Shown piece after piece: positions 3,118 to 42,998 of a stretch of DNA of 64,000 nt (position 1 is the stretch's first letter; each line of letters starts with the position of its first letter). The translations under genes were made by a program, and so were the position numbers. The notes beneath the pieces were generated by a model that was not told the origin of the DNA, did no database searches, and worked only from the letters and a program-made list of their open reading frames with translations. The DNA comes from a virus. The stretch lies in IMG/VR virus record IMGVR_UViG_3300042382_000102, positions 1 through 64,000 of that record, one strand, 5' to 3'.

Positions 3118-3146
3118 GATCTCTCTTTAGCGTCCCCTGGTAAATG
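3118..3146 (-). promoter_or_regulatory. Putative phage RNAP promoter, copy 1 (predicted +1 G at 3125)
   Basis: Minus strand CATTTACCAGGGGACGCTAAAGAGAGATC; 29/29 identical to 25096..25124; aligns with SP6 promoter ATTTAGGKGACACTATAG; intergenic. Confidence 0.8.
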
Positions 3147-3164
3147 TAATAATTTTAACTCATT

Positions 3165-6100
3165 TTACCAACCTAAATTCAAATAAATTGTGCCACCAAT
3201 ACTACTAGAGGTAGCTCTTACATTTAATGTAGCAGCAGGTCCAGTAGCTTGATTTTGAATTAAACTTGTTGATTTTGTAGTATAGAATGCTGGAAAACTT
3301 AATGTTTCAAATGTATTCCAAGCACCTGTACTGTTAACTCTATACTCTACAAGTACAGGTATAGCTGATCCAGTATCATTATATCTACTAAGAGATACAT
3401 CTATCCAAAAATAACTTCCCCTAGGGATAGTTGTCATGCCAACAGTTGGATAACCAACTTGCATACTAGACAATGTTATTGGGGGTAATGGAGTAGTTGA
3501 AGTATCTGCAATAGCCCAAGATATAGCATTTCCAGCTTGAATTGTTCTAGCTGCATTTGTATACCAAGTTGCTGTAGCATTTTCTGTACCTTCTGTAAAT
3601 GAATCAGCTGTCATACTAAAGCTAAAGCTGCCGCTAGGTCCAGGAAAAGTTACTGAACCTTGTAATTGATTCTCAGATGTATCACCAGCCGTAACGTTAG
3701 TTCCACTTATAGTATAATATAAAGTAATTGGAAAAGAAGGAACATTGCTAAAACTCCAAAATACAGTTAAACCAGCACCTTCATTTACTGTGCTTGGCGA
3801 ACTAGAAAAACTATATGAGGGAGGACTTAAAGAAATGTCTCCAATATCCCAACTTAAACTGTTACCTGCAGATATAGTTCTGCTAGAATCTTTGAAAAAG
3901 CTAATAGTTGCTGTTTCTGGGCCATCTGTAAAACTATCTGGCGTCATTGTAAAACTAGGGGCTCCAGTGGATGCAAAGCTGCCAGTTAAAGAGCCTGATG
4001 TAATATCACTTGCTGAAATTCCAGATATACTATAATATAAGATAGCAACACCCTGTGAAGGGTTACTTGGAGTAGCATATATTTGAACACTACTGCCTTC
4101 ATTAATAGTCCCAAAAGGTGCTCTATCAAAAGTCCAAGTAGTTTGAGATGTATCATTAATAATAAGTGTTATCTTATTATCATTAGCAACAGGTCCAAAG
4201 TTTATTTGATTTTCTAATAATCTACTAGAAGAAGTGTAAAACCTAAAGGTTAAAGTTTCTGTACCTTCTGTTAATTGATCAGCAAGAGTATTAATATATG
4301 TATAATGATCTGCACTATCTAATATGATTTGGCCATCAATACCTCCAGAGATAGCGGTTGTAACTAAATCTGTATCTGAAGTAGTAACTCCAATTCCTGT
4401 AATTCTGTAATATATAGTCTTAGGGTAAGATGTAACATTAAAACTTCTTACTCTCAAGTATGTTAAACTACCTTCATTTTCAGTAGTGCTATAGGTAGTA
4501 GTATTGGGGTATACAGAAATTTCGTAACTTGGAGGACTTATGGAAGTGTCTTCAATAATCCAGCTAAGTGAATTGCCAATAGGTACTGTCCTTCCTGAAT
4601 CAGAGTAAAAGTTAATAGTAGCTGTTTCATTACCTTCTGTTGAAGTATCAGCGGCCATTGTTAATGTTGTTCCACTTGAGGAATTAAAACTTCCAGTTAA
4701 TGAGTTAGAAGTTAAGTCTGAGGCAAGTATTCCTGAAACAGAGTAGTACACTGTTATTGCTGGTGCCAGTGCATTGCTAGGGGTAGCACTAAATGATATA
4801 AAAGTATTACTTCCAGTTTCAGCAATTGAGCCTGTACTTGGATTCTTAGTGAAGGACCAAGTAGTTTTAGAAGTATCACTTATTGTTATAGATGCGGGTG
4901 TACCTAACTGTGTAGTAAAACCAGAGTCCAAATATAAAGTAACAGTTAATATTTCATTACCTTCGGTAAATTGATCAGCTGAAACATCTACTTTATAATA
5001 AGTGAAAGGTCCTGTGAGTGCTACTGGCCCTGATGTAGCAAAATTAGTATCTGCATTTGTAATACCAGTTCCAGTAAACTTGTAATATATTGTTACAGGG
5101 TAAGTAGGTATAAAACTACTATCTATACCAATATAAGTACTAGCGCCTTCATCTACAGTTCCAGGTGGAGTAAAGAAATAAACACTATAAACTGGAGCAC
5201 TAAAAGAGCTATCATTTACATCCCATGATAATGTATTGCCAATTTGTATAGTTCTACTAGAATTAGAATAGAATGTTATTCCTACTGTTTCTAAAGCTGG
5301 ATTTTCAGTAGTATTATCTGCAGCCATTGTTATAGTTAAACCACTTGTAGAAGTAAAACTACCTAACGTCCCAGCAGGACTAAAATCGCCATCTAAGATA
5401 TTAGTACCACTTAACCAATAGTAAATAGTAGTTGGAGCTTGTGCGGGATTACTTGGAGTAGCCGTGAATGAGATAGAATTATTAGTTGTCTCATTAAAGG
5501 AACCTGTAGCTGGAATTCTAGCAAATGTCCAAGTAGTTTTAGAAGCATCATTAAGTACAATTGATACTGAATTGCCAAGTTGAACTGTTCTATTTGAATC
5601 AGAATATAGGGAGAAGGTCAATGTTTCATTACCTTCAGTATATTGATCAGCAGTAGCATTAATATTAAAAGATACTGTTGGACCTGTCACAGATACTGAA
5701 CCTAATAAAGGATCAAAATCAGTATCATCAACTGTTATACCTGTACCAGATAGTCTATAATACGCTGTAAATGGGTAATTTAATACATTAGCACTATTTA
5801 TAGTAAAAGAGAAATCTGAACCCTCATCTATTGAAGTTTGGGATACAGATAACGAGTATGAAGGAGGAGTCTTGGAAGTATCTCCAATATCCCAACTTAG
5901 TAAATTACCAATAGGTATAGTCCTATTAGAGTCTGAATAAAAAGTAATTCCTGCTGTCTCTAAATTTTCAGTAGATAAGTCTTCTCTCATATTAAGAATA
6001 AGACCTGAATTACTATTAAAACTTCCTTCTAATGATGCAGAAACTACATCCCCAGAAGTAATTCCAGTTCCATTTAACCAATAATATATTGTTGTATTTG

Positions 6101-9100
6101 GAGCTAGAATATTACTAGGAGTAGCAGTAAAGGATATTGATTGGCCTTCATCAATAGTGCCACTTGAAGGGATTCTTGCAAATGTCCAAGTAGTCTTAGA
6201 AGCGTCTCCAATATTAAAAGTAATTTGATTTCCAATAGGAGTAGTGTAACCTGAATCAGAATAGAATGTAATTGTAACTGCTTCTGTACCTTCAGTAAGT
6301 TGATCTGACTGAATTAAAAATGAAATTGTTTCTAAAGCATCAGATATACTCCAAGAGCCTTGTAGTATACCTAAACTAAAATCTTCTGTTGTAATTCCAC
6401 TACCAATAATTTTATAGTATATAGTTGTTGGATAAACAGGAACATAAGTACTACTAGCTGTTACTGTTACAGATACCCCTTCATCTACAGTAGCTGTATT
6501 TGGATCTCTTGTGAATAACCAAGAGGGAGGTGGTGTCTTAGAAGTGTCTGCAATATCCCAAGTTACTGTATTACCAACTTGGCGAGTTAATTGTGTATCA
6601 TCATAGAAGGTTAGAGTAACTGTTTCTGGATTAGTTTCTGTAAATAAATCTGGAGCCATTGTAAGGCCGATACTTTGTCCAGTAGCAGTTATATTCCAAT
6701 TAAATATCGTAGAATTAGGAGGAGAGCTAAAGTCTGAATTTGTAATGTCAGTACCAGTCATTTTACCAAATATTAACTTTGGTAATACTGCATTTGTACT
6801 AATTGTGATTATTTGATTTGATCCCTCATCTACAGAAGCATAAGATCTAGAAAACACAAATTGAGGATCCCCCATTGACCAAGATATAGAATTACCAATA
6901 GGTATTGTTCTTCCTGAGTCTGAATACATATCAAAGAATACAACTTCTCCAAATATACCTTCATAAGTATAATCTTCTACACCAGTAAACTGTAAAGTAA
7001 CTGGAGTATTATCATAGAGTATTGTTTCAGTTAATAAAGTACCACTAATAAAATCAGCACTGGTTAAATTAGCATTTCCACCAGTTATCTCTCCATAAAC
7101 AGTATAAGGATAACTTAAATAATTAGGTGTTATAGTAAGTGTTTGAGTCTGACCTTCTACAACAAACCCCTCACTTCTAGATACGGAAATAGCATCTATA
7201 ATTTGCCATTCTAGTCCTGTAATAATATCAGTACCACTAGCATCTCTATAAAAAGTTATTTGAAAAGCTTCTGTACCCTCTGAAAAGTTATCTTCTTTTA
7301 TATCAAATAATACTTGTTGATCTGTAGATGTAATATTAAATGGAAAAACAGCATTAGTTAAGAAATTAGTATCAGAATCTGATGTACCATTTCCACTAGC
7401 AATTCTATAATATATAGTATAAGGATATGCAGGTACATTAGTACTTTGAACTCTAACAACTAGGCTAGTACCCTCTCTAACTAATGCAGTAGTAGGGTTA
7501 CCTGTTATTTTAGAAAAAGACCAATTAATTGGAGTTAATGAGGTATCTACTAGTGTTACATTAAACCCTAAATCTGCTAACCTAGTTCTTGGTATTGGCA
7601 TGTCCTTATCTAAGAATATTGTAAATGCTTCATTACCTTCTGTAGTTAAATCTGCTTTAAATTTAAGAGTAAATGATCCAGATCCATTTGTAGTAGTAAC
7701 GTAATAAGTATCACCTGAAACATAATTTACTCCATTGATTTGAGCGATATCATCTTCAGATGCACCTGTAATAGATGTTAATCCAATAATTGCTCTAGTA
7801 CCAGTTGGAGCTGCCGTAGTTACATTATATGTATATTCAATACCTTCGTTAATAGTACTTGGACCTGAGATAGACCAACTATACTCTAATGAAGTATCAT
7901 TAATTAACATATCAACAAATACAGAAGGATTATCATCAATAGATAATCGAAGTTTCTTTGGACCATCTACTCTAAAATCTAGTTTAGCATTAAATGTCCT
8001 TGAAGTGCTGGGTGGGTATACATTAGCAGGTAAAGTAAATCTGTTAGAGGTTACAGTCGCACCACTACCTAGCGTAACAAGAGATACCCAATCATTACTA
8101 TCGAAGTTTTGGTCTATAGCCCCTACTGCAGTTGGTATTTGTGTTAACGTATAATTTACTATTCTAGGTGAAGTTGAAGTTTCTAATGTGGTTAGAGTAA
8201 CTGTAAAAGACTCACCTTCATTTATACTACTTACATTTGGAGTAATTTTTAAATCATAAAAACTTGAATTTTTAAGACTAAAAGATTGTGGTATCCCAAC
8301 TAATGCAGTTCCACCTACAGAGGTGATAGTCATTGTTACTGTTTCAGTTTGTTCAAAAATACTATCAGATGCAGCATATATAAAAAAGCTTGCTGTATTA
8401 TTATTAACAACAAAAGTATTTGTTAACCCATCTCCAAAATCAGATGCAGTAACTCCAGTACCAGATAGAGTATATCTTAGTTGTCCACCAGTAGGGACAT
8501 TTGTTGTAGTTACATTACATTGTATAGGGCTAACATAACCTTCTTGAGTAATAGTTGGATTAAGAGTTAATACATAGCTAGCGGCAGGGAAACCACCACC
8601 ATTATAGCCAGGGTTGTAACTTAAAGCATTAGAAAATAACGGATTATGATCTATACTTGTTGGTAATATTTGTTTTACACTACTATATCTAGTAGAGTTA
8701 TTAAAAAACCTAGAACCTGTAAATGGTAAAGTACCTGTTTTATTCTCATCTAATATTTTTGGAAACCAAGAAGTTAAATAGCTTCCATTTTGATTGTAAA
8801 AACAAAGATATTTTTCTCTTTTAAAATTTGAACTATCAATATATGTTAACTTGTTAGTTTCTAGATTTGGTAAGAAATAACAAGCGTAGTCTGTTGGTGG
8901 CACGCTATTCTGCTGATTACCATTAGGCATTACATAATAATCAAAGAATTGTGAACTTGCAGGATCTATTTTAAGGTGAGACTTAGTTGTATCAAATACA
9001 CATTGATTAGAACTATTAAATAGTCTAGCTCCATAACCTAAACCAGCAGTTGTTATTTGTCCAAGACTAAAACAATATATTTCAGGTATATCTGAAGATA

Positions 9101-28070: not shown

Positions 28071-28090
28071 TTAAAAAATCTCCTATGATT

Positions 28091-28786: not shown

Positions 28787-28852
28787 CTTTATTTTCCTTT
28801 GGCACAGCCATTTAATTTTAATTTTTTAGGGTTTAGTTACAAACATAAACTC

Positions 28853-31800
28853 TTACGGTCCAATACCATACCAATCCATACCTTTAGGTATAGGAGCGAG
28901 TATCTCTTTTCTCGTAATCTTGTTTTTGGGATTTAGTAAGCCATCCTCAATAGCTTTTTGGCGAAGCTTATTGTAAGTCTCGTTAGACATACCTTCAGCT
29001 TTTAATGCCAGTAATGTTTTCTCTATTGTGTTACCTTCAAGAGCATCCGCATAGATTTCTCTAAGCGCATACTTGGACTTTGCTGCTTGTCCAATGTTGG
29101 TGAAGAAAGCATCATGAATCGTAGCGGTTTCAATACCATTTTTACGACCCCATAAATGAAATCTTCTTACAATAGTAGCATCGTTCATGTGGTTACCATT
29201 AACCCCCATGCCAATACCTGCCCTCATCAGGCTTGATTTTCCTAGAAGTGAAGCATCTTCTGCTCGATCTTCGTAAATGTTACGGACCATCCTATTAGCT
29301 TCTTTGTCATAGAACTCAATGCTAGTTTGGATTTTAGGTCTGTATCTCTGGTATAAAGTCTTACCATCAAATGTTACCCAAGGTACATCAACCTTCTGAG
29401 TTTCATCAACGTAAGCTTTAGCAGCTTCTTTCCAGAATTGTACGAACTTTTGAGTTACTGGTGCTCTCTCAGCTAGTCTTCGAGACATAATCTCAGAGAC
29501 TGCTTTGAAGTCTTGAGGTCCAATTAGACCCCTACGAGCATTCATTAACTTATCGACAAACGCTTCTACGTCTGGGTGAGAATCACGAGCATGTGCTAAA
29601 AGTTCTTGCCCCACAGGGGTTTCACCTTCAACAACCTCATTCAACTCACGCTTTAATTGTTTCAAACCAAAGACAACATTTTCAGCACCTAGCTTATCTG
29701 CCTCTTTGATTTTTCCATCTATAATATTTGTTACACCACGAAGTTCTTCACGAGTAACAACAGTATATCCTTTTAACTCTAATACTGAAGCAAATTTAGC
29801 CTCAATATTAGCCGCCTGTGTTGCTTTACCAGCACCATAGAAAGAAACCATGTTCTGAGCTTTAGCAGCTTTCTGGAGATCAGTCCATTGAACATTAGCA
29901 TCTCTTAACCCTTGTATCTTTTGAAACTCTGGATCAGACACTGTATCCATAGCAACTAAGTCATACAAACGATTCTTTTGGAGTGTAGGTAACACATTTG
30001 AGTTGATTGAAATGTCTCTATCGCCTGTACTCAAACCGATAATCTGAGCACCAGAGGATGAGGCATCATTCTCAATCATTAATTTTGTTTTGTATTCTGC
30101 TAATTTATTTACATTAGTAAAATCACCATTTACAGCTTTATGCGCACGAGCGTATTCTATTGCTAATCGACTAATCTTTGGAACTTCCTCTGCTTCAGTA
30201 GCACGGATAATAGGATGCTCTAGGTATTCCCTAATCCTTCTATCTCGTTGAGTAGTTTCCATCATTAACCTACCAAGGCTTAGAATTTCTTTTTCATTTC
30301 TTAAAAAGATTTCCATTCTACCAGATTGTGTTAAAGCTTCTGTAGCAGGTCCAAGCATAGACCCAGTTTGAATCATTAACTCTCGTAGAATCTCAGGAGT
30401 CATATCTTCAGGTTTTGCACTATTAAGAAATGGTCTAACCACTTCACCACCAGTTGGTGTTAGGAATCCTTGATAGTATACACGTCCACGACCATCAATA
30501 TTAGCGACAACACTAAAAGGTTTACCAGTATCTCTGTGATACTTAACCGTCTGCATAAAACTGTAACCTTGATCTCCACGAGTCAAAATAAGTTTTCTAA
30601 AATCATTTAAGTCATCGTACTTCTTTACGTTCCCACGGGGATCTCTAAAGCGAACTAAGTCTTCCATGAATCCAGCATACTCGTTATCAACCTCATATTG
30701 AACTGACATTGTATGATTAAGCATATCAGCAAAATCATTGTCAATAAGAATTTTATCGTAATTAGCATTAGCCCTGCGAGTAATAATCGGAATACCTGTA
30801 TTATTGCCTCTAGCATCAAAATAAGTCTTAGCTCCAGAACGAACATACAGCTTGTCTCTTGGAGAATTAATACCAATACGTTTTGCTAGCAATGCACTAC
30901 GATTAGCTCTCTGTAAGTTTAACATATCTTTGTTTAAGATCTGTACTTCACGACTAACTGTATCTCTCCAAGGACCACTTGCACGACCTGTTTCTAGGTC
31001 AACAACTGATCTCCTAGTCTTACCTCTCATGACCACACGAATGTAGCCTTTGTCTTTTAAGGCAGTAAGAATTTGGGAACCATCAGCATGATAGTCTTGT
31101 AATGTAGGTTTAAAGAACGGGAACTCTGGGACATTCCAAGATTCTCTCAATGTCTTTCCTACATTAATAGCTAATGAGTCATAGTCAGTAGACTTACCAT
31201 CAGCAACTACAGTTAAAACTTTAGATAGGGCATCAATAGCCTTCTTGTCGTTAAGACCACCCTCAACTAATTGATTTAAATAATTTTGTCTTTGTTTACC
31301 AAATAGAAACTCTAAGTCTACTATTCTTCGATAGTCTTCTCTTCTGTTTCTTAAAAATTCATCAACTAATCTTTCAGTAGGCGCTTTATCTTTAAAAAAT
31401 AGTTTAGCACCAGGAATATTATCCTCTAAGTATTTAACTATTTTCTTTTTAAAAACATCAATACCAATTCTAGGAGTACCTTTAAACCATGTGTATAGTG
31501 GAGTTCTTCCAGTATAATACAAGCTTCTGGCTAGAGGTCTACCTTCAGTAGTAGCCCAATTACGAACATATCTTTGATCATCTATATTCTTTTGAATGAT
31601 TTCATCAAAGGTATAATACTTACCAAATATTTGTACTTTAGCAGGTTCTCCAGCAACTCCATATGAGTCAAATTGTGATGATCGTGCTCTTGATCTACGA
31701 TCTAGAATACGACTAGTGTTAACTACAGAATACTGCATTTCACCACGGGCAACATTCATGAAGTTTACCCAAGGCTGTTTATCATTGTTATATCGTTCAA

Positions 31801-33271
31801 ATACAACACGCAAATTTTCAGCAATAGCAGTCTGTTGGTTAACAGAAACAGAATCATCTAGGCTTTCAACGAATTGTTGAATCCAAACTTTTTGTTCTTG
31901 GTTTAGAGCCTTAGAGTTTTTAATAAAGTCTAATCGTTCCTGTAATACACCAAAGTCTGGGTCATACAAAAGAGTAGAACTCTGTTCACCTGTAAAGGGA
32001 TCAAAGCTATTATTACGTTCATCAAACTCGTTATTAGCCCTAATCCTAACTGATCGTTTACCTTGTAATGAGGTACCACGATAGTCTACTAGAGATAGTG
32101 TTTGTGCAGTATTTTCAGTGTCCGCTATATACATTGCCTTTAATTGTTTATTGGCCTCTGTATTTTTAATAAGTTCATTAGGTCTAGCTACATTAACAGC
32201 AAATAAATTAGATTCAGCTTCTGCTACTGCGGCTTGCCTAGTTGGAAAGAATGTTGTTCTTGCATTATCAAGTTTTCTTAATGCTGCAATACTTAATTGT
32301 TGACCCTTAGCGGTAGTAAATGCTTTAACGTCAAGAACACCTTTTTGTAGTAATCCTGCACGTTCTTCACTACCTAAATGTTTAACTTGTACCATCATAG
32401 GCTGACGCTTAAGCCATGTACCATAAGTTTCTACTGGGGGTAAGCTACCATCTAAAATATTCTCAGATGTTTCCTTAAGTTTATTTACTTTAACTCTTGA
32501 TTCAGCTTCCTCAGAAGCTTTTAATAGTTCTTCTTTGTTCTTTAAAACAGGAACCATAGAACTACGGCAATTCCAGTGTAAGGGAGGTCTAAAACGAAGA
32601 TCATCAATCTTATATACTTGACCATCATGGTGAGCACAGATCTTTGATGTTCTATTATCTAACACAGCAGTAAATCTATAACCTTTTAGTAATTCGTTAT
32701 TACGATCCATTACTAGATTAATTGCTTTAGCTTGCGTATTCGTAATAGCAGTTCTAACTAATACCTTAGCTTGCACTTCAGTCATAGTTGTAGTCTTAAT
32801 TACATCAGCAATAATTTCTTTAACAGGTTTATTGTCTGCTAATCCTGACTTAATTTTTCCATCAATCCTAGCTAACTCAGTTGTACCAATACTGTCAAAG
32901 TGATCTTTTAAACTCTTTGAGGCAGTAATATTAGGTCCAATCAGGAGAGGAATAGCATCACTACCTCTAGGTTTTTGTACCCTAAAGAAAGATCCAGCAC
33001 TTCTCTCTAGATTATTAGCATGGAAGCTTACAGAGGCATCTGCATAATCACTAACTGAATTTTTAGTAATCATGTGTAACTCTTTAGTTGCTCGAGTTAC
33101 TTCTGGTTTAACATCAGCCTTAATATTTTTAGATAATAAAATCTTTAATCTTTTCTGATGCCTACGGATGCCTCTAGAAACATTGGTTGATGTCTCTGCT
33201 TCATATAGCCTAGTGTCAGCTAAGTGTTGTACAATACGATCATAAACTTCCGTATTAATTGGTGTTGGCAT
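28853..33271 (-). CDS. MuF/SPP1-gp7 minor head protein fused to a T7/SP6-family single-subunit DNA-directed RNA polymerase
   Basis: N-terminus: VRTA...AVLDNRTSKIC...PPLHWNCRS (C235) and TYGTWLKRQP. C-terminus: DGRGRVY (D926), motif A NDASSSGAQ (D1069), motif B KAQNMVSFYG (K1137/Y1145), WVTFDG, NGNHMNDA, motif C IHDAF (D1387). Confidence 0.92.
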   Translation of the reverse strand: MPTPINTEVYDRIVQHLADTRLYEAETSTNVSRGIRRHQKRLKILLSKNIKADVKPEVTRATKELHMITKNSVSDYADASVSFHANNLERSAGSFFRVQKPRGSDAIPLLIGPNITASKSLKDHFDSIGTTELARIDGKIKSGLADNKPVKEIIADVIKTTTMTEVQAKVLVRTAITNTQAKAINLVMDRNNELLKGYRFTAVLDNRTSKICAHHDGQVYKIDDLRFRPPLHWNCRSSMVPVLKNKEELLKASEEAESRVKVNKLKETSENILDGSLPPVETYGTWLKRQPMMVQVKHLGSEERAGLLQKGVLDVKAFTTAKGQQLSIAALRKLDNARTTFFPTRQAAVAEAESNLFAVNVARPNELIKNTEANKQLKAMYIADTENTAQTLSLVDYRGTSLQGKRSVRIRANNEFDERNNSFDPFTGEQSSTLLYDPDFGVLQERLDFIKNSKALNQEQKVWIQQFVESLDDSVSVNQQTAIAENLRVVFERYNNDKQPWVNFMNVARGEMQYSVVNTSRILDRRSRARSSQFDSYGVAGEPAKVQIFGKYYTFDEIIQKNIDDQRYVRNWATTEGRPLARSLYYTGRTPLYTWFKGTPRIGIDVFKKKIVKYLEDNIPGAKLFFKDKAPTERLVDEFLRNRREDYRRIVDLEFLFGKQRQNYLNQLVEGGLNDKKAIDALSKVLTVVADGKSTDYDSLAINVGKTLRESWNVPEFPFFKPTLQDYHADGSQILTALKDKGYIRVVMRGKTRRSVVDLETGRASGPWRDTVSREVQILNKDMLNLQRANRSALLAKRIGINSPRDKLYVRSGAKTYFDARGNNTGIPIITRRANANYDKILIDNDFADMLNHTMSVQYEVDNEYAGFMEDLVRFRDPRGNVKKYDDLNDFRKLILTRGDQGYSFMQTVKYHRDTGKPFSVVANIDGRGRVYYQGFLTPTGGEVVRPFLNSAKPEDMTPEILRELMIQTGSMLGPATEALTQSGRMEIFLRNEKEILSLGRLMMETTQRDRRIREYLEHPIIRATEAEEVPKISRLAIEYARAHKAVNGDFTNVNKLAEYKTKLMIENDASSSGAQIIGLSTGDRDISINSNVLPTLQKNRLYDLVAMDTVSDPEFQKIQGLRDANVQWTDLQKAAKAQNMVSFYGAGKATQAANIEAKFASVLELKGYTVVTREELRGVTNIIDGKIKEADKLGAENVVFGLKQLKRELNEVVEGETPVGQELLAHARDSHPDVEAFVDKLMNARRGLIGPQDFKAVSEIMSRRLAERAPVTQKFVQFWKEAAKAYVDETQKVDVPWVTFDGKTLYQRYRPKIQTSIEFYDKEANRMVRNIYEDRAEDASLLGKSSLMRAGIGMGVNGNHMNDATIVRRFHLWGRKNGIETATIHDAFFTNIGQAAKSKYALREIYADALEGNTIEKTLLALKAEGMSNETYNKLRQKAIEDGLLNPKNKITRKEILAPIPKGMDWYGIGP

Positions 33272-33325
33272 TTAAACTCCTTGATGCTAGTTAACAACTG
33301 CATCTTGGATGCCCTCGTTAATAGC

Positions 33326-33562: not shown

Positions 33563-33563
33563 A

Positions 33564-35903: not shown

Positions 35904-35916
35904 ATATAATTAGTCC

Positions 35917-36030
35917 TTACTTCTTGAACTTAGATACTAGCTTGTCTTGTATTGTAATTGCCCATGATGGTTGCGGAACATGCCAACCAATAACAATACC
36001 TACGGCAATGCAAATTAATGCTGTTATCAT
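35917..36030 (-). CDS. Small membrane protein (37 aa)
   Basis: Manual translation MITALICIAVGIVIGWHVPQPSWA...; GGGGA RBS. Confidence 0.5.
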   Translation of the reverse strand: MITALICIAVGIVIGWHVPQPSWAITIQDKLVSKFKK

Positions 36031-36039
36031 AATATCCCC

Positions 36040-36225
36040 TTATTTCTTAGTAGGTACTTCTGTACCTTCTAGCTTTTTATGTATTTTAATTTCTTTACAT
36101 ACTTCCTTAGACTTTCCAGTCTTAGGGTCTTTAGTCTCTTTACAAACCTTCTTTGTTGTTTGTTCTGCAGAATGAACTGTAGGAACTATAAACATAAAGG
36201 CAAATAATAATATAAACTTATTCAT
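36040..36225 (-). CDS. Small secreted basic protein
   Basis: Signal peptide followed by two VCKE repeats. Confidence 0.5.
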   Translation of the reverse strand: MNKFILLFAFMFIVPTVHSAEQTTKKVCKETKDPKTGKSKEVCKEIKIHKKLEGTEVPTKK

Positions 36226-36234
36226 TTGTATCCT

Positions 36235-36702
36235 TTAAATAAGGGGATGCTCTGGATGAGGAGGTGCTAGCTTACCACCATAACCTGTAGTTACAGTAGT
36301 CTCAGTAATTGTACGCTGTTGTTGTACTGCTGGATAATTTTGTCCATACTGTTGTGGTTGCTGGTTGCCCATAGGCATACCCATTGATTGGCTTTGAATT
36401 GGACCTGAAGACACTCCTGCCATTTTCTCTTGACCCCTAGACCAGGCAGTAATACCTAATACAGCACCCATAGCCATATGAAATAAACCACCGCCCTGAA
36501 GGGTTAATGGAGCCCACTGCCTAAAGGCATCATTTTGAATAGCAACTTCCCAGAATTGTACAATAGTAAATCCAATAGGGAATATAATAAAGTCACATGC
36601 GCATACACACATATACATCATAGCCATTAGTGGACGCCATTTCTTTTGCATCCAACTTTCTTCTTCTTTCTTAGGTTCTTCAACCTTAGCTTCTTCTGCC
36701 AT
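36235..36702 (-). CDS. Holin-like membrane protein (3TM/GTA-holin-like)
   Basis: WMQKKWRP...DFIIFP...FHMAMGAVLGITAWSRGQEK motif with hydrophobic segments. Confidence 0.65.
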   Translation of the reverse strand: MAEEAKVEEPKKEEESWMQKKWRPLMAMMYMCVCACDFIIFPIGFTIVQFWEVAIQNDAFRQWAPLTLQGGGLFHMAMGAVLGITAWSRGQEKMAGVSSGPIQSQSMGMPMGNQQPQQYGQNYPAVQQQRTITETTVTTGYGGKLAPPHPEHPLI

Positions 36703-36711
36703 AAGAAATCC

Positions 36712-37260
36712 TTAAATTGTTAGGGGTAGCCATAGCCATATAGCTTGTGACATTAAGAATGCTGCTACAGCACCTACTCCAATACTTGCTTGGAATAATT
36801 TTCTATTAACTGCTAGTATAGAAGCAGTAAGCAATACAATAGCAATCTGGAATAATGATCCAGCGTATGTATAAAACGGTGAACGCTGTTTAGCTACTGT
36901 TCTTTCAGCCTCTAGCTTACGAGCTTTAGCCATAAGTTCTTTCTTACCTTCACCTGTAGAAGGTTCTGACTCATATCTATCTATTTTCTTTTGAAGCTCT
37001 GCGGCTTTCTTAATGTTGCCTCTAGCTAATGCATTCTCTTGAGAGATCTCAGCTAGGCGACTCTTGATATCTTTAGATTGGTAGAATGACCATGTGTTAT
37101 TAGCATCAATTGTGTTGTTGAGTACTTTAGAACTATTAGATCCACCCATTAAGGTGTTAATAGCAAGCAATGCAGCAAGCACTGTAATAACCCATCCAGC
37201 CTTATCTTTTAAGAGGGCTTCTCTCTCGCTTCTACTTAAAGGTTTAGTTTCTTCTGTCAT
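36712..37260 (-). CDS. DUF4337-like membrane protein
   Basis: LAALLAI...NTWSFYQSK.IK...FQIAIVL motifs; probable start MTEETK at 37260. Confidence 0.6.
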   Translation of the reverse strand: MTEETKPLSRSEREALLKDKAGWVITVLAALLAINTLMGGSNSSKVLNNTIDANNTWSFYQSKDIKSRLAEISQENALARGNIKKAAELQKKIDRYESEPSTGEGKKELMAKARKLEAERTVAKQRSPFYTYAGSLFQIAIVLLTASILAVNRKLFQASIGVGAVAAFLMSQAIWLWLPLTI

Positions 37261-37267
37261 AGTGTCC

Positions 37268-37420
37268 TTAGAAAGGTAAGTATTTAGCAATTAGCCCATT
37301 AACAATTCTGTCTGATAGGTCGTCAGGTAGGAACTTAAGAAAACCTAGAAAGTATAGGCCTACAGCACCATAGCAGAATATCTTTAAACATAAGTCGAAG
37401 GTCTTTTGATACTCGTTCAT
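37268..37420 (-). CDS. Small membrane protein (50 aa)
   Basis: Manual translation MNEYQKTFDLCLKIFCYGAVGLYFLGFLKFLPDDLSD...; ATGA overlap. Confidence 0.5.
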   Translation of the reverse strand: MNEYQKTFDLCLKIFCYGAVGLYFLGFLKFLPDDLSDRIVNGLIAKYLPF

Positions 37421-37914
37421 CGTCCACACCTATTGCCTACTTGACAGTATTGCATTAGCTCGTAACCACCAATAACCATTATAAATAATACAAAGGAAAC
37501 TACACTTAAAATAATAGCTAACTCATTTAGTTCTTCTTCTTTTTGTTTACGTTTCCGTTCATTAGCATTAAATAGTCTTAACTCTTGAGCATCGTCAGCA
37601 TCCATCTCAGCTTGACGAGCCTTAATTTTATTCCACACATCTATCTTACCTGTTTGCATAAAAAGCATTTTAAGCTCTTCTTCGAATGCCCTAGCTTGTT
37701 CTAGAGCCATCTCGATCTGGAGAGCCGTTCCCATATTGGAACCCTTGCCACTTTTCTTAGCCTCTATCAAGGCTTTAGTAGCAGTACTCTTAGCATCAAA
37801 CATCTTGCCTATCATAGGTGCAAGAGAACCTAGGTCATTAGCTACTTTACTAGCTTTCTTAACCATTGATATAGCTGACTGTATGCCAGCAAGAGCCGTT
37901 AGCGGATCAATCAT
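37417..37914 (-). CDS. Hypothetical coiled-coil membrane-anchored protein
   Basis: MIDPLTALA N-terminus, C-terminal TM helix. Confidence 0.6.
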   Translation of the reverse strand: MIDPLTALAGIQSAISMVKKASKVANDLGSLAPMIGKMFDAKSTATKALIEAKKSGKGSNMGTALQIEMALEQARAFEEELKMLFMQTGKIDVWNKIKARQAEMDADDAQELRLFNANERKRKQKEEELNELAIILSVVSFVLFIMVIGGYELMQYCQVGNRCGR

Positions 37915-38066
37915 TTTCTTTTTTCCTTATCCGTTTTGTCGTTGTTCTTCCACTTTAAACAACTAACCTTACGGTTATAAGGAGGACCTTGCCATGTCCA
38001 TCTCTCGCATTGAGGAAGGCGGGGGTCATAACCAGCTAACACTAAGGTAAGAAGAATAGTAGACAT
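37911..38066 (-). CDS. Small secreted Cys-containing protein (51 aa)
   Basis: Manual translation MSTILLTLVLAG...CERWTW.G....RKVSCLKW; fills the gap exactly. Confidence 0.45.
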   Translation of the reverse strand: MSTILLTLVLAGYDPRLPQCERWTWQGPPYNRKVSCLKWKNNDKTDKEKRK

Positions 38067-38681
38067 TTACACACCGAGTACATGGAGTGCATGTGCATAG
38101 TGCTTTTTACGGTCCTCGATACCAATGGTACCTCCGTTAATTTTTCTTGTTAATGTCTCTATATCGCCTTGATCTGCCCATTTATTTAAGTTATTAGTTT
38201 CCCAGAACCAGCAAGCACTCTGTGCAGCACCCTCAAAGGTACTCATGTACTCACTAGCTTCTTCTGCGGAAATACCAATAGACTCAGCAAACCAAAAATA
38301 ATTATCTTTACCTGTTAACTGGATTAGGCCTCTACCAGAGTACCTATATCCATCTCCTGAAGCCTCATCCCCATTACCCATACGATTAGCATAAACCTTA
38401 TTAGCAATAGCTTCAGGCTTCTGAGCGAACTGTTTAGCAAGTTCATCTGTAGGGAAATATTTAGGGAATATCTTACGGAGTGTCTCCCAACGATAGTTGA
38501 GATTTTCTTTAATCATTGTGAACTCACCTGACTCATGAGCGCATTGAGCAACAAATGCTGCTATACGCTTCTCATTATCAATACCATAGTCTGGTAGGAG
38601 TTGTTCTAAGGCATTATGCCAGTACGTAACATGCTTGTTCTTTGGGATAAGCTGTTTAAGTTGGTCTAGTGTTAGATTCAT
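38067..38681 (-). CDS. Endolysin, glycoside hydrolase family 19
   Basis: AAFVAQCAHESG, ENLNY, YANRMGNG, GRGLIQLTGK.NY, INGGTIG motifs. Confidence 0.92.
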   Translation of the reverse strand: MNLTLDQLKQLIPKNKHVTYWHNALEQLLPDYGIDNEKRIAAFVAQCAHESGEFTMIKENLNYRWETLRKIFPKYFPTDELAKQFAQKPEAIANKVYANRMGNGDEASGDGYRYSGRGLIQLTGKDNYFWFAESIGISAEEASEYMSTFEGAAQSACWFWETNNLNKWADQGDIETLTRKINGGTIGIEDRKKHYAHALHVLGV

Positions 38682-38941
38682 TTAAGTGCCTCAAAAAGTT
38701 TCTTTTGTTCGATATACCACTCATTCCAAGCATCTAGGCGGATAGCACATATGTGATATTCAGCATAGTTATGCAGAATAGTCTTAGTAAGCTCTGATAG
38801 TTCAGGCTTAGAGTCAGCCTCTTTTAACTTAGCACATGCCACAGTTAGCTGACTAGGTACCTCTGGGAACTTAGCTACAACAGGTACTGTAGTAGAGCAT
38901 CCTGATATCGTTAACAATAGAATAGCTAATAGGTATTTCAT
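38678..38941 (-). CDS. Outer-membrane spanin (Rz1-like lipoprotein)
   Basis: Lipobox ISGC after a signal peptide; Pro-rich segment; overlaps neighbours. Confidence 0.75.
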   Translation of the reverse strand: MKYLLAILLLTISGCSTTVPVVAKFPEVPSQLTVACAKLKEADSKPELSELTKTILHNYAEYHICAIRLDAWNEWYIEQKKLFEALK

Positions 38942-39327
38942 TGTGTAACTGCCTTATTATGTATAGTTATAACCTCTGGAGGAATCTTACATTGATCATT
39001 GTATTTAATTATCTCACGATCAACATATTGTATTTGGCCTTCAACAACCTGTTTAACAATTAATTCTTTATTAACAACTTTTGTTACTATTTTAGTATTA
39101 ACTATTGCTTTCTTAGCATCTAACTCAGCTACCTTCTTTTCAAGTTCAGTAACTCTGTCTTGCCATACTTTATCAGCAGTCTTATAACCGATTAGAAATA
39201 AAGATGCAAAGATTAATCCCACAGCAATAGGTCTGTAAGTCTCAAATTCCTTTACTAACCATCCAAACAACCCTACCATTAGGGTAATAAACAATAGCCA
39301 AGTAGGTATATAGTTTAATATAAACAT
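38938..39327 (-). CDS. Inner-membrane spanin (Rz-like)
   Basis: N-terminal TM segments, coiled coil, C-terminal Cys; adjacent to the lipoprotein. Confidence 0.7.
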   Translation of the reverse strand: MFILNYIPTWLLFITLMVGLFGWLVKEFETYRPIAVGLIFASLFLIGYKTADKVWQDRVTELEKKVAELDAKKAIVNTKIVTKVVNKELIVKQVVEGQIQYVDREIIKYNDQCKIPPEVITIHNKAVTQ

Positions 39328-39345
39328 TTAAATCCTTTAAAAGAA

Positions 39346-39418
39346 GAGTGATAGTGGGAGTCGAACTCACATTCCGAAGCAATTAAATCCTCGATTCTAC
39401 CGATTGAATTATACCACT
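39346..39418 (-). tRNA. Atypical tRNA or tRNA-like element (anticodon reads UAA/Leu; short variable loop; no CCA)
   Basis: Cloverleaf: acceptor AGTGGTA/TATCACT, D arm ATTC-AATCGGTA-GAAT, T arm GTGAG-TTCGACT-CCCAC; mismatches in the anticodon and T stems. Confidence 0.6.
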
Positions 39419-39606
39419 CTAGTGACGCCTTTTACTGTAGCGACAACAGCCCTAAGGTGGGATCATGCTGAATACCTCATGAACTTAATCACTTGGCTAC
39501 CAGAGGGTTATTTAAATTTGTTTGTCCACTTAACTACCCATGCTAATCAATAGCCATGGTTACTTACCTTTAGGCTTAGGTGGTTTTTTCTTTTTATTGT
39601 TATACA

Positions 39607-39825
39607 TTATTTTTTCTCTTTTTGAGGATATAGAATATCTGATTGTTTATCAAAACAATATTTTGTAATAGTTGTTGTATTATTTACTACCATGTTAGCC
39701 CAAGCTGTTTGAGCATCAATAAAGTCATTGGCTACTTTATTTAAAGTGGTATCAGTAATGACCTTATTAGTAAAGTCATGCTTAAGACTCTGAAAAGAGT
39801 TAATATAAAATTGAGGTGTAAACAT
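39607..39825 (-). CDS. Hypothetical protein (phasin-like helical)
   Basis: 72 aa with AAGGA RBS; FIDAQT motif. Confidence 0.5.
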   Translation of the reverse strand: MFTPQFYINSFQSLKHDFTNKVITDTTLNKVANDFIDAQTAWANMVVNNTTTITKYCFDKQSDILYPQKEKK

Positions 39826-39834
39826 ATAGTTCCT

Positions 39835-41160
39835 TTAAAACATAAAACCTTTAGTGACTGTCTTAGTACCTGAACGAACAGGGAATAAGTATTCAACAGC
39901 ATACCTTAGTGCATCTGTCCAATGTTCTACATTTTCAGACTTAGATATTTGTGCTGTATTAGGGTTATTCTCAACCCATACAGTTCTTTCAAGGGATCGA
40001 ATTGTGTGTTCTGCTCGTGGATGAATATACATGTCTATATCACCATTAGCATTCTTAAATTTACGATTAACAGCAGCTACAGAGTCAACAATAGGAGGAG
40101 CAGCTCTATGTGCTCTACAGACAATGCCATAACTCTCTAAGATAGAGAAGTCAGTGGCTCCAGCAACAGCACTAGTTTTTCTAGCACGTCCTGCAGGATC
40201 TGGATAAGCAAATATCCTGTGTCCCTTGTCCTTAAATTGTGTCTTAAGCTTTTTAGCTAATTGTTCAGTATCGAGTACATTCTGCATATCCTCTAAGATA
40301 TGTATTTGTCCAGCTCTAACAGCAAATACTACTGCGGCCATAATACCAATGTTAAAGTCGATAGCTACATGTACATCTTCTTTGTTTGCTGTCTCTACAT
40401 TGAAGTAAGGGAGATCAGCAGTAACATGAGTCTTACGATCAAACATGTAGAATACCTTAGCACCTGAGTCTTCAAAGGAACACTCATACTCTCGAGCAAA
40501 CTTCATAGGATCGATTAAACGCTTAGTTCTCTCAATCTCTTGTACAGATAAATATGGAGAGTCTCTGTAAGTATATCTAAAGGTTTTCCAACGATTATCC
40601 ATTGTCTCAAAGTTAGTCATGTCATAAAAGTAATTCATACCTTTAGGAGTACCAATAATGAGAGCCTTGTGATTACCTGCCCAACGTGTAGTCATGGCAG
40701 GTTGAATGATAGATTCCCAAGACTCTTTAAGTCCTGGTTGACCTGTCCAGTCAGAGACCTCATCTCCAACAACAAAGTATTGACCTGATCCTCGCATCCT
40801 CTCAGATGCTTCATAAGACCATAACTTAAGCTTAACATTATTTGGAAACCAAAATGTTCCAGCTGTCTGGGAAGACTTTTCAGCATAATCCTCTAGACCT
40901 AAGTTATAGGCTAATAGTGGCCAATAAATATCTAATGACTGTTGATATGTAGGGCAGATGATAGACACATTCTTATTAGGAACATCCTGATCCATCTCCA
41001 GTAACTCATGCACAGCCATTGTAGCAGCAACACTAGCAAGGTAACTTTTACCAAAGCCTCGTGAGGCAACTGTGGCAGCATATCTTGTGCCGCCTTTCTC
41101 AGAGAATAAATACTTTAATACTTCTGACTGACCTCTGTGTAATTTAATTTCATTTGACAT
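39835..41160 (-). CDS. terL: Terminase large subunit
   Basis: Walker A ASRGFGKS, Walker B FVVGDE, GTPKG, FAREYECSF, nuclease IDFN / YPDPAG / HWTDALRY. Confidence 0.93.
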   Translation of the reverse strand: MSNEIKLHRGQSEVLKYLFSEKGGTRYAATVASRGFGKSYLASVAATMAVHELLEMDQDVPNKNVSIICPTYQQSLDIYWPLLAYNLGLEDYAEKSSQTAGTFWFPNNVKLKLWSYEASERMRGSGQYFVVGDEVSDWTGQPGLKESWESIIQPAMTTRWAGNHKALIIGTPKGMNYFYDMTNFETMDNRWKTFRYTYRDSPYLSVQEIERTKRLIDPMKFAREYECSFEDSGAKVFYMFDRKTHVTADLPYFNVETANKEDVHVAIDFNIGIMAAVVFAVRAGQIHILEDMQNVLDTEQLAKKLKTQFKDKGHRIFAYPDPAGRARKTSAVAGATDFSILESYGIVCRAHRAAPPIVDSVAAVNRKFKNANGDIDMYIHPRAEHTIRSLERTVWVENNPNTAQISKSENVEHWTDALRYAVEYLFPVRSGTKTVTKGFMF

Positions 41161-41364
41161 TTAAACGTATAAGTCTACACTATCCTTAGTTAAGACACCC
41201 TTTTTATTCTTTGCATTAATCTCTTCAAGTTTTCGATAGAACTCTGCTATCTCCATTCTAGCTTGGAGGCCTTCTCGGAATACTTTATCAGAAGCTTCCT
41301 TGAGTGCATTGTATTGTTCTTGGTACTTCTTTATGCTGTATTCAGCAGGTGGTTGGACTCTCAT
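41161..41364 (-). CDS. Hypothetical protein
   Basis: 67-aa ORF with AAGGA RBS, abutting terL. Confidence 0.5.
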   Translation of the reverse strand: MRVQPPAEYSIKKYQEQYNALKEASDKVFREGLQARMEIAEFYRKLEEINAKNKKGVLTKDSVDLYV

Positions 41365-41430
41365 AGCTTATCCTTAAAAATGTATACTTTATTACTAAAA
41401 AACTAATATCTAATTAATTTGTATACTTTA

Positions 41431-41829
41431 TTATTCGTTTGTAAACACAATTTTAAGAGGCTTTTTGTCCTCAATCACTTGTTCGGTCTTCTCAGGAACC
41501 TGTCTATAACCATAGCGCATTAACGTGTTCATGACATTGGTTTGTATGTTAAGTAGGTTAGCCATAGCAACAGCAGAGAACCTTGTCTTGCCTTCTTCCA
41601 TGTCCGTAACCTTATCCTGTACAGTGTAGTAGTGCTCCACTAGCTTCTCAATAGGATCAAATCCCAATGTCTGAAGCTTCTTAACAGACTCCTTAGAGTA
41701 TATAGTGGTAGTTCCCTTTGGACGTCCTTGTCCAGGTCGCAAGCCTCCACGCTGACCATAAGTAGTTCTAGCTTTATAGTCTTTACTCGTGGGATCAGGT
41801 GAAGACACTTTTTCATCAGTGTCTGACAT
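41431..41829 (-). CDS. Probable terminase small subunit
   Basis: RGGLRPGQGRPKG motif, helical body, upstream of terL. Confidence 0.6.
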   Translation of the reverse strand: MSDTDEKVSSPDPTSKDYKARTTYGQRGGLRPGQGRPKGTTTIYSKESVKKLQTLGFDPIEKLVEHYYTVQDKVTDMEEGKTRFSAVAMANLLNIQTNVMNTLMRYGYRQVPEKTEQVIEDKKPLKIVFTNE

Positions 41830-41832
41830 AGT

Positions 41833-42132
41833 TTATTTTCCTTGCATTGGGTTCTTGGAGTTGCGTCTAGCTACTGGTTTAGCAGGAGTCTTAACAACAG
41901 GAACAATATTATTGCTGTGTAATTGGATCTTTAGATCAGAGATCATAGTGAGTAACTCATCTTTATCTCTAAGCAGTTTGTCAACTTTACCCTCTAACTT
42001 CTTCACCTCTGACATAAGCAGATTAGTGAGCATATCATGGGCCTCTTGGCGCTGCTTATCTTTGTTATGGAGGTAGGTCCAGAAGGCACCAGTACTTAAC
42101 ACAACAATAGCCACTTGTACGATTGATTCCAT
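41833..42132 (-). CDS. Hypothetical TM + coiled-coil protein (first gene of late operon)
   Basis: Probable start MESIVQ at 42132 with AAGGA RBS; N-terminal TM helix. Confidence 0.55.
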   Translation of the reverse strand: MESIVQVAIVVLSTGAFWTYLHNKDKQRQEAHDMLTNLLMSEVKKLEGKVDKLLRDKDELLTMISDLKIQLHSNNIVPVVKTPAKPVARRNSKNPMQGK

Positions 42133-42369
42133 TTTAATTCCTTTAATTTTGGCGATTTCTATACACATCGGGAGGTACCCTCTATTGGTCGGGAGCCAAT
42201 AGTACCTCTACACAAATGTTACAGAAACATCTAAAATAATATTTTAAAGTACTTTTTAAAGTACTCCTTAAAAATATTTTATAATATTATTTTAATAATA
42301 ACAACAATAACAATAATAATTTAAATATTATTATAGTTAACCCCCTAAATCCCCCTTTTGGGTAGGACT

Positions 42370-42390
42370 CTCTCTTTAGCGTCACCTGGT
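42370..42390 (-). promoter_or_regulatory. Putative phage RNAP promoter, copy 3 (predicted +1 G at 42374)
   Basis: Minus strand ACCAGGTGACGCTAAAGAGAG; one G>T change from the other copies, at the position that is also G/T in SP6 promoters; heads the packaging/structural operon. Confidence 0.8.
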
Positions 42391-42400
42391 CTTTTTTGAC

Positions 42401-42477
42401 AAAAAAAAAAAGAATTACCCCTCCAGAGTACCCTCTAACCACCCCCGAAGGAGCAGCTAAAGAGTACCCTGGAGGGG
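42401..42477 (-). terminator. Very long UUCG-capped hairpin terminator
   Basis: 28-bp uninterrupted stem (7 G-U pairs) at 42418..42477 with C-UUCG-G loop, then TAATTC and T11. Confidence 0.8.
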
Positions 42478-42490
42478 ATCTTTTGGCTAA

Positions 42491-42964
42491 TCATGCATAA
42501 AACACATGATTGCCTATTGTTACAGTTTTAGTAACTTTACTAGCCCACTTTGGTAGGACATAGTGAGCATGATAGAAGATAGAACCATTTGTAGGATCTT
42601 TTAGCTTCCCTTGAACGTAGTTAGATGCAATAGCATGAGCTAACTCGTATCTCTTCCTGTCTTTAGGTGAGTGGTTCTTTAGTAGTTTAACCCAAGAGAA
42701 CTGATTGGGTTGATAGACTACTTGGCAAATAGAGGTTGGATACCCCTGTGATAAGAGTCTATTGATCGTGACAGCTGCAACAGCTATCTGACCCTTTATT
42801 GACTCTCCCCTAGCTTCATGGTAAATGTTATGAGCTAGGCAGTCTACTTCTTTTTTAGGTTGAAACCCTAGATTAAAGAGTTTCGTGTTAATTGAATCTA
42901 GTGCTGTGACAGTAGATAATTGTAGAGGAAAAAGAAGTAGCATTATTAGTGCTAACTTGTTCAT
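42491..42964 (-). CDS. SleB-like cell wall hydrolase (Hydrolase_2)
   Basis: CLAHNIYHEARGE, AVAAVTINR, ICQVVYQPNQFSW, IGNHVFY; signal peptide. Confidence 0.9.
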   Translation of the reverse strand: MNKLALIMLLLFPLQLSTVTALDSINTKLFNLGFQPKKEVDCLAHNIYHEARGESIKGQIAVAAVTINRLLSQGYPTSICQVVYQPNQFSWVKLLKNHSPKDRKRYELAHAIASNYVQGKLKDPTNGSIFYHAHYVLPKWASKVTKTVTIGNHVFYA

Positions 42965-42977
42965 TTTGATCTCTCTT

Positions 42978-42998
42978 TCTCTTTAGCGTCCCCTGGTA
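42978..42998 (-). promoter_or_regulatory. Putative phage RNAP promoter, copy 4 (predicted +1 G at 42981)
   Basis: Minus strand TACCAGGGGACGCTAAAGAGA; +1 is 17 nt upstream of the SleB start codon. Confidence 0.8.

Follow-up and report, generated by a model that had tools for sequence, protein, structure and literature searches.

The window, the 64,000-nt stretch of DNA analyzed here, represents bases 1–64000 of an 80.3-kb phage genome. From its sequence, this phage is a freshwater siphophage with kin among the Naomiviridae, including roseophage DSS3_VP1; a megablast search with 20 kb of window sequence returned no match among isolated phages. The motif ACCAGGKGACGCTAAAGAGA has four exact matches in the window, all on the minus strand (3122–3141, 25100–25119, 42371–42390, and 42978–42997), and its K position is T in the 42371–42390 copy. 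The features at issue are listed below.

3120..3142, minus strand: predicted late promoter copy 1, -17 to +6; predicted +1 G at 3125; 36.6 bits
25098..25120, minus strand: predicted late promoter copy 2; predicted +1 G at 25103
28853..33271, minus strand: MuF-RNAP gene, 1472 aa; MuF domain at residues 141–239
42369..42391, minus strand: predicted late promoter copy 3, T at -10; predicted +1 G at 42374; 32.9 bits
42401..42477, minus strand: predicted terminator, a 28-bp perfect hairpin (42418–42477) followed by U11; -61.7 kcal/mol, z -5.85
42491..42964, minus strand: endolysin-like gene; phrog_938, 1.7e-27
42976..42998, minus strand: predicted late promoter copy 4; predicted +1 G at 42981; 36.9 bits
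60065..60087, minus strand: possible weak middle-class promoter copy, TTCCAAGGGACATTAAAGCAGAA; 24.2 bits (best shuffle, 16.9)
65941–65963, gene strand, outside the window: predicted fifth promoter copy, from a weight-matrix scan
65968–68136, beyond the window's end: RNAP2 gene, 722 aa
69786–69810, beyond the window's end: early element

Copy 1 is found between the gene for a 2089-aa virion protein and the distal tail genes, with a 6-bp 5′ hairpin after its +1, while copy 2 lies past the major tail protein gene and ahead of the tape-measure module. Copy 3 opens the packaging/head operon and directly follows the strong terminator that separates it from the endolysin-like gene; from this placement, it is predicted to drive the MuF-RNAP gene, which lies downstream in the same operon. 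Copy 4 precedes the endolysin-like gene, 17 nt ahead of its ATG, and this gene forms its own promoter-gene-terminator unit. The positions of sites 2 and 3 are conserved in DSS3_VP1, where the counterpart of copy 2 is a site at 29397.

An earlier note, made from the window alone, had described four motif copies that were intergenic and co-oriented with the genes. This description held in full: chance predicts 0.02 exact matches to ACCAGGKGACGCTAAAGAGA against the four observed, none of 100 shuffles gave four, and all four copies are intergenic and on the coding strand. Alignment also confirmed that the first two sites are identical across 29 nt. The genome-wide weight-matrix scan that the note had proposed recovered six sites of 24–37 bits in the whole 80-kb genome, all on the gene strand and five of them intergenic, against a best score of 16.9 bits in 20 shuffles. 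In addition to the window's four copies, it found the site at 65941–65963 and the weaker one at 60065–60087. This last site lies within a 163-aa ORF and is kept in G001 and G002, a conservation that coding constraint could account for.

The element as a whole is a 23-bp duplex from -17 to +6, TACCAGGKGACGCTAAA up to -1 and GAGAGA from +1. Where the flanks have diverged in relatives, 23 nt likewise remain conserved, matching the -17 to +6 extent of a T7-type promoter. Measured over 31 distinct orthologous sites from relatives, conservation was 1.86 bits per motif position vs. 0.35–0.49 in the flanks. The near-identical, co-oriented, and mostly intergenic copies share their genome with T7-family polymerases whose catalytic motifs are intact (RNAP2 and MuF-RNAP), and the first copy comes directly downstream of an RNAP gene, with none upstream in the early region. 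The late motif has no inverted repeat, and neither it nor the early-element core contains a hairpin of the N4 vRNAP promoter type (5–7 bp stem, 3-nt loop). On this sequence evidence, we conclude that the motifs are real T7/SP6-type promoters, predicted to serve a phage-encoded single-subunit RNAP ahead of middle and late genes. Transcription would start at the G after TAAA, as inferred from the SP6 alignment, and the +1 positions that the earlier note had given follow correctly from this alignment as predictions.

The resemblance to SP6 had also been described correctly, including the G/T choice at -10. Between -13 and +2, 13 of 15 positions agree with AATTAGGTGACACTATAGAAG of the SP6 genome, the common pattern being AGGKGAC.CTA.A/GA (slash before +1), and both promoters are 23 bp long. 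However, none of the copies is an SP6 promoter proper, whose consensus is ATTTAGGKGACACTATAGAAG. The present motif has G in place of the SP6 A at -6 and A in place of the SP6 T at -2 (giving a T3-like TAAA), and TACC replaces the AT-rich ATTT at -17 to -14. The relative G009 comes nearer, as it shares TAGGTGAC...GAAGAG with SP6 and has the SP6 residues RVR in its RNAP2 loop. SP6 itself is a 44-kb podovirus (Zindervirus, Autographiviridae), whereas the present phage is an 80-kb long-tailed virus. Still, the layouts are alike: in both, weaker promoter variants follow the RNAP gene closely, and the late genes have consensus copies ahead of them. Weak and consensus classes also recall the class II and III promoters of T7, as do the 5′ stem-loops after +1 and the hairpin-U terminators, although the recognition sequence differs.

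RNAP2 went unseen in the earlier note because its gene sits beyond the window's end. It matches T7 RNAP at E 8.7e-63, scores 272 bits against Pfam RNA_pol, and has all catalytic motifs. It is 150 aa shorter than SP6 RNAP at the N-terminus, and its identity to SP6 RNAP (26%) is no higher than that to T7 RNAP (28%). Kinship of the enzymes therefore does not account for the resemblance of the promoter to that of SP6. MuF-RNAP also carries a full T7-like polymerase fold, in approximately its last 970 aa, but is far less T7/SP6-like, scoring 29 bits against Pfam RNA_pol and E 4e-5 against T7 RNAP. It is annotated as a head protein only.

The SP6-like promoters are most likely read by the free-standing RNAP2 rather than by MuF-RNAP, to judge from promoter placement, the likeness of RNAP2 to T7 RNAP, and a covariation between residue and base that matches the T7 contact map. 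A promoter copy starts 5 nt past the RNAP2 stop codon in G000 and just past it in G001–G003, and the stretch from the early element to the RNAP2 gene contains no copy of the late motif; the SP6 and T7 genomes likewise have their first promoter copy after the RNAP gene. MuF-RNAP would itself be expressed from copy 3. In T7 and T3, the switch from N748 to D governs -10/-11. Mirroring this switch, RNAP2 has K or R at the equivalent of T7 position 748 where -11 is G (G000–G003, G010, VP1, and G009) and E in the clade with C at -11 (G007 and five loci), a pattern read from a loop alignment with a one-residue gap and one that, like the MuF-RNAP covariation below, may stem from a single evolutionary change. 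T7 748K variants are reported to read G at -12/-11 (PMC11880802), and the RNAP2 covariation fits this report. We rejected a similar assignment of RNAP2 residues 756/758 to -9/-8; at these residues, VP1 and G009 both have T and W, yet their -9/-8 bases differ.

The earlier note had instead named MuF-RNAP as the cognate reader of the motif, which would be recognized through the loop RPKIQTSIEFYDKEANRMVRNIYE. Its reading of the motifs as SP6-like promoters of a single-subunit phage RNAP stands, whereas its choice of enzyme gives way to RNAP2. The candidate specificity loop was well placed: the MuF-RNAP peptide after WVTFDGKTLYQRY aligns with the T7 specificity loop, with Y..IQT as a local anchor, in a complete fold that has the catalytic residues. 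MuF-RNAP accompanies the motif in all complete relatives, as the note had suggested checking, but RNAP2 is equally present, and every record at least 87% complete encodes both polymerases. Co-occurrence therefore cannot separate the two. By contrast, the G-to-C change at -11 that the RNAP2 residue follows is ignored by the MuF-RNAP equivalent of T7 748, the residue/base pairs being E/G, E/C, D/G, and N/G. Moreover, an injected MuF-RNAP reading this motif would activate structural genes from the very start of infection, whereas neither RNAP2 nor the early genes would have such a promoter ahead of them, and RNAP2 would be left without a promoter of its own. We therefore consider MuF-RNAP unlikely as the reader of these promoters.

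A better candidate promoter for MuF-RNAP is the early element, GTGAGAAAA-N7-ATCTATAAT, which heads the early region upstream of RNAP2 and in extended form reads AAAAAAGTGAGAAAA-N5-G(C/T)ATCTATAAT. Exact matches to it are present in 113 viral contigs, and where a locus is long enough, an RNAP2 homologue nearly always follows on the same strand, 1.2–6 kb downstream. MuF-RNAP is encoded in all records with the element that are 87% complete or more. The MuF-RNAP residue at T7 R746 is S where T lies 5′ of ATCTATAAT (5 genomes) and R where C does (8 genomes). A hairpin and then a T run are found between the early genes and RNAP2.

These observations suggest that MuF-RNAP is probably a virion-delivered early polymerase and not the reader of the SP6-like promoters. 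We consider a two-step cascade the best explanation of the locus and, on balance, a likely one. In this cascade, MuF-RNAP would be packaged in the head, enter the cell with the DNA, and transcribe the early region from the element at 69786–69810. The early transcript would include the RNAP2 gene. RNAP2 would then fire the SP6-like promoters, both the weaker variants in the replication region and the consensus copies ahead of the lysis, head, tail, and fibre genes.

Alternatively, both polymerases could read the SP6-like promoter, MuF-RNAP as starter and RNAP2 as amplifier, with the early element being a host sigma-70 promoter. In its favour, the element contains a perfect TATAAT preceded by an A tract, and the two enzymes have the T7 fold in common. 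Were the element a host promoter, the role of MuF-RNAP would be open again. However, its -35 hexamer is missing, and approximately 35 nt are conserved across phages that differ widely in host and in G+C (35–48%), more than sigma-70 needs. The specificity loops of the two enzymes are unrelated in sequence, and covariation links the MuF-RNAP loop to the early element, making this alternative unlikely.

Parts of 24001–34000 are contained in 24 freshwater metatranscriptome runs, and a comparison of four runs with 24001–43500 yielded assembled contigs of relatives at 90–99%, two of which bridge site 2. Such RNA-library contigs might suggest that the motifs are not promoters but regulator operators or RNA-level signals (processing sites or 5′ stabilisers), yet they carry little weight because read-through or contaminating DNA could yield them, and we find this explanation barely credible given the 23-nt block, its strict orientation, its placement ahead of operons and right after the RNAP gene, the lack of inverted symmetry, and SP6 agreement that extends to the TA-rich melting region and the +1 G.

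DSS3_VP1 has approximately 16 copies of a homologous motif, TAGGKTRCGTTAAAGA, all on the gene strand, its late-type sites reading TAGGKTRCGTTAAAG, and homologous motifs occur in G009 (TAGGTGACGTTAAAGAAGAG) and G007. The early elements of DSS3_VP1 are at 35.8 and 36.2 kb, and its MuF-RNAP and RNAP2 are gp108 and gp080, respectively. A de novo search for late promoters in G011, G015, and G016 gave nothing convincing. G015 and G016 were considered as relatives lacking MuF-RNAP, but this was rejected, as their contigs end before the head module. Pelagibacter phage Kolga has an RNAP2-like gene (29% identity) and a plain MuF, and neither motif class was found in it. In EBPR siphovirus 1, MuF-RNAP is 32% identical and interrupted by an HNH gene, and neither RNAP2 nor the motif was found within the 50 kb of this partial record.

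A succession of two phage polymerases is familiar from coliphage N4, in which an injected vRNAP transcribes early genes and RNAPII then transcribes middle genes. The present phage similarly encodes two T7-family polymerases that would act in sequence, one of them late-encoded and presumably virion-borne. However, the N4 vRNAP is a 3500-aa enzyme that reads DNA hairpins, whereas the candidate promoter here has no hairpin and the presumed virion enzyme is a fusion with a MuF head protein. The late genes of N4 use host RNAP, while here RNAP2 appears to serve middle and late genes alike. Early transcription would also differ from that of T7, being performed probably by a second phage polymerase instead of host RNAP. 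AR9/PBS1 and phiKZ pair a virion with a non-virion polymerase for host-independent transcription, but their enzymes are multisubunit and those here single-subunit. Among MuF-fused effectors (polyvalent proteins), the N-terminal MuF is thought to carry the C-terminal enzyme into the capsid and then the cell (PMC5512222), and MuF-RNAP has the same arrangement. In the survey of polyvalent proteins, RNAP modules appeared only in N4-like proteins, and a MuF-RNAP fusion was not among them (PMC5512222).

Taken alone, the late motif is ordinary, a new specificity inside the T7/SP6 promoter family. It could be of use as an orthogonal expression pair, although cross-talk is possible because it is close to the SP6 promoter. 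The larger point is the two-polymerase layout, for which we found no published description; the literature we searched on the Naomiviridae-related phage family makes no mention of RNA polymerases or promoters of their own. If the cascade is correct, a capsid-delivered MuF-RNAP would read a near-invariant early promoter of ~35 nt and thereby switch on the polymerase of the SP6-like promoters. By extension, there is perhaps an even chance that the family (Naomiviridae with freshwater and marine relatives, >113 viral contigs) runs its whole programme without host RNAP, with two new, naturally orthogonal pairs of single-subunit polymerase and promoter that are possibly dU-adapted.

The family is common in lakes and seawater, and its cultured members have dU-DNA. 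Both AR9 and the related roseophage DSS3_VP1 are reported to have such DNA (PMC5449584, PMC8323127), and self-sufficient transcription by two single-subunit enzymes would help explain how dU-DNA genomes are expressed. DSS3_VP1 and its host Ruegeria pomeroyi are both in culture, and this pair therefore offers a simple system in which the predicted cascade can be tested.

The 20-mer ACCAGGKGACGCTAAAGAGA occurs in four exact copies in the window, all on the minus strand (0.02 expected from shuffles). The minus strand also carries every gene of the window, and each of the four sites falls between ORFs.

3122-3141, minus strand, late motif copy 1, exact match to ACCAGGKGACGCTAAAGAGA
25100-25119, minus strand, late motif copy 2, exact match to ACCAGGKGACGCTAAAGAGA
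42371-42390, minus strand, late motif copy 3, exact match to ACCAGGKGACGCTAAAGAGA
42978-42997, minus strand, late motif copy 4, exact match to ACCAGGKGACGCTAAAGAGA

These results bear out the earlier note's description of a four-copy, co-oriented, intergenic motif, and alignment confirmed that sites 1 and 2 share 29 identical nt; the sequences around the four motif copies are otherwise unrelated. Compared to the SP6-genome promoter AATTAGGTGACACTATAGAAG, the motif matches at 13 of 15 positions from -13 to +2, consistent with the SP6 likeness and +1 positions previously predicted. Between site 4 and site 3 lie an endolysin-like gene and then a 28-bp hairpin followed by U11, which together with the two sites make up a promoter-gene-terminator-promoter unit.

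The late motif was found at equivalent places in 50 related viral loci (polymerase identity 99% down to 63%), always on the gene strand except for one overlapping reverse-strand match in locus L051. At a polymerase identity of about 64%, it takes the form CCAGGGGACGTTAAAGAA. Across 31 distinct orthologous sites, information content was 1.86 bits per position in the motif vs. 0.35-0.49 in the flanks, and the conserved block TA-CCAGGGGACGCTAAAG-AGAGA spans 23 nt, equal to the -17 to +6 span of T7-type promoters. A weight-matrix scan of the whole genome returned six sites at 24-37 bits, on the gene strand only, while the best of 20 shuffles reached 16.9. One of the two extra sites starts 5 nt 3' of the stop codon of RNAP2, a free-standing polymerase gene, and is retained in the related genomes G001, G002, and G003. 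Among isolated phages, the roseophages DSS3_VP1 and DSS3_PM1 (Naomiviridae, dU-DNA) are nearest, and gene order is conserved with them. DSS3_VP1 carries about 16 homologous sites (TAGGKTRCGTTAAAGA). One that follows its major tail protein gene corresponds in position to window site 2, and one that precedes the homologue of 41431-41829 corresponds to site 3. Neither this phage nor DSS3_VP1 has a late-type site in the stretch from the early region to the RNAP2 gene. Judged by its sequence, the late motif is a conserved promoter.

Two polymerase genes are present in this phage, as well as in DSS3_VP1 and all five of the long relatives tested. The 1472-aa product of 28853-33271 (MuF-RNAP) joins a MuF head-protein domain to a polymerase. 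Its last 973 residues are predicted to adopt a full-length T7/mitochondrial-type RNAP fold (mean pLDDT 70), with a Foldseek match of E 1e-18 over about 1000 columns, and the catalytic residues are present. RNAP2 (722 aa, 65968-68136, outside the window) scored 272 bits against Pfam RNA_pol vs. 29 bits for MuF-RNAP, and matched T7 RNAP at 8.7e-63 vs. 4e-5. In G010 (IMGVR_UViG_3300034072_000514, oriented 6449-9409), RNAP2 is split by about 780 nt, and the MuF-RNAP match falls in two pieces with a TAA. An HNH endonuclease gene splits MuF-RNAP in EBPR siphovirus 1 (25771-31144).

In contrast to the earlier note, which had proposed MuF-RNAP as the reader of the late motif, likeness, layout, gene placement, and covariation all led us to favor RNAP2 as the probable reader. 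RNAP2 is the enzyme resembling T7 and SP6 RNAP. It shows no special closeness to SP6 RNAP (26% identity vs. 28% to T7 RNAP), so the SP6 likeness of the late promoter would be either ancestral or convergent. The promoter layout also matches that of SP6 and T7, in that the RNAP gene closes the early unit, weaker promoters come first, directly 3' of it, and consensus copies precede the late genes. The MuF-RNAP gene itself sits behind site 3. If injected MuF-RNAP arrived with the DNA and read the late sites itself, structural genes would come first and RNAP2 would be left without any promoter.

Further support for RNAP2 as the reader comes from covariation between its loop and promoter base -11. 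At T7 positions 746-748, in an alignment to the T7 specificity loop with a one-residue gap, the RNAP2 loop is R-x-K or R-x-R wherever -11 is G (this phage, G001-G003, G009, G010, and DSS3_VP1). It is R-T-E in a clade with C at -11 and promoters of the form A(G/C)CTGACGTT(A/T)AAG; G007 contributes seven such sites, and five other loci one or two apiece. The MuF-RNAP residue equivalent to 748 does not track -11, being E with G, E with C, D with G, and N with G. The change at 748 in RNAP2 matches, in position and chemistry, the known T7 N748/T3 D switch at -10/-11. Engineered T7 748K variants read G at -12/-11, in agreement with the RNAP2 pattern (PMC11880802).

A separate conserved element lies upstream of RNAP2.

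69786-69810 (L060:5786-5810; outside the window), minus strand, early element GTGAGAAAAATGATGTATCTATAAT, heading the early region

This element directly follows the hairpin-T6 terminator (69827-69846) that closes the tail-fibre operon. Across G001 (two copies), G002, and G003, all 25 nt are preserved, with a C/T at position 14 as the one difference, and the two DSS3_VP1 copies, equivalently placed, depart from it solely within the central 7 nt. The bipartite pattern GTGAGAAAA-N7-ATCTATAAT occurs exactly in 113 viral contigs (IMG/VR), at one to four copies each, with the consensus AAAAAAGTGAGAAAAnnnnnG(C/T)ATCTATAATGA. Among loci with about 2.5 kb or more after the element, nearly all carry a homologue of RNAP2 (37-100% identity) on that strand, at a distance of 1.2-6 kb downstream; L115, L120, and L139 are the three exceptions. 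MuF-RNAP is present in every early-element record at least 87% complete. Moreover, its residue at the T7 R746 position, placed by the local anchor Y..IQT, is S in 5 genomes with T just 5' of ATCTATAAT and R in 8 with C, a pattern that fits a putative Arg-guanine contact on the template strand. Given this conservation, position, co-occurrence, and covariation, we lean toward the early element being MuF-RNAP's own promoter. The main alternative is a host promoter. However, the element lacks a -35 hexamer, and a host sigma-70 promoter needs less than its length and invariance across hosts. Each covariation, RNAP2 with -11 and MuF-RNAP with the early element, may represent a single evolutionary event.

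The tail TTTTTT(A/G)TCAAAA is common to three hairpin terminators on the minus strand (window 42394-42406; genome 69814-69826 and 68285-68297). It also stands behind hairpins in G001-G003, with TTTTTTACCAAAAA as the DSS3_VP1 form, and may be a conserved termination signal for phage polymerases. The arms of the 28-bp terminator hairpin (42401-42477, minus strand) contain stretches that resemble promoter sequence, namely CCAGGGTAC and TCTTTAGC (complement of GCTAAAGA), and the hairpin looks like a promoter turned into a palindrome. RNAP2 is separated from the small early genes by a GC-rich hairpin of 9 bp with a T run (68309-68331, minus strand; L060:4309-4331), followed by GGATATAAT. It could act as an attenuator, or RNAP2 expression could have a second start point there.

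RNA polymerases and promoters go unmentioned in the papers on this phage family that we consulted. In a survey covering polyvalent proteins and MuF fusions, RNAP modules are reported for N4-like proteins only (PMC5512222).

The source record is viral, 80,335 bp (window, bases 1-64000), and rated complete. Its start recurs about 230 nt before its end (1-230 and 80106-80335), indicating that the assembly is circularly closed; this overlap lies within a tail-fibre ORF, and ORF 3-2150 carries on into 78428-80105. The phage encodes a portal, major head protein, 2438-aa tape-measure protein, terminase, PhoH, DNA polymerase, primase-helicase, and ribonucleotide reductase. The tail-fibre operon ends with a ferredoxin-dependent bilin reductase gene (69939-70625, minus strand, outside the window; PF05996, 1.4e-21), and no photosynthesis genes were seen in this phage. 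Gene 59523-59936 (minus strand) has 37% identity to the DSS3_VP1 deoxycytidylate deaminase, which is among the genes put forward for making dU-DNA. For the nucleotide kinase encoded next to it in DSS3_VP1, no homologue was found in this phage. The ribonucleotide reductase large subunit (54195-56198, minus strand) has a thioredoxin-like domain at its C-terminus (phrog_22, residues 565-656).
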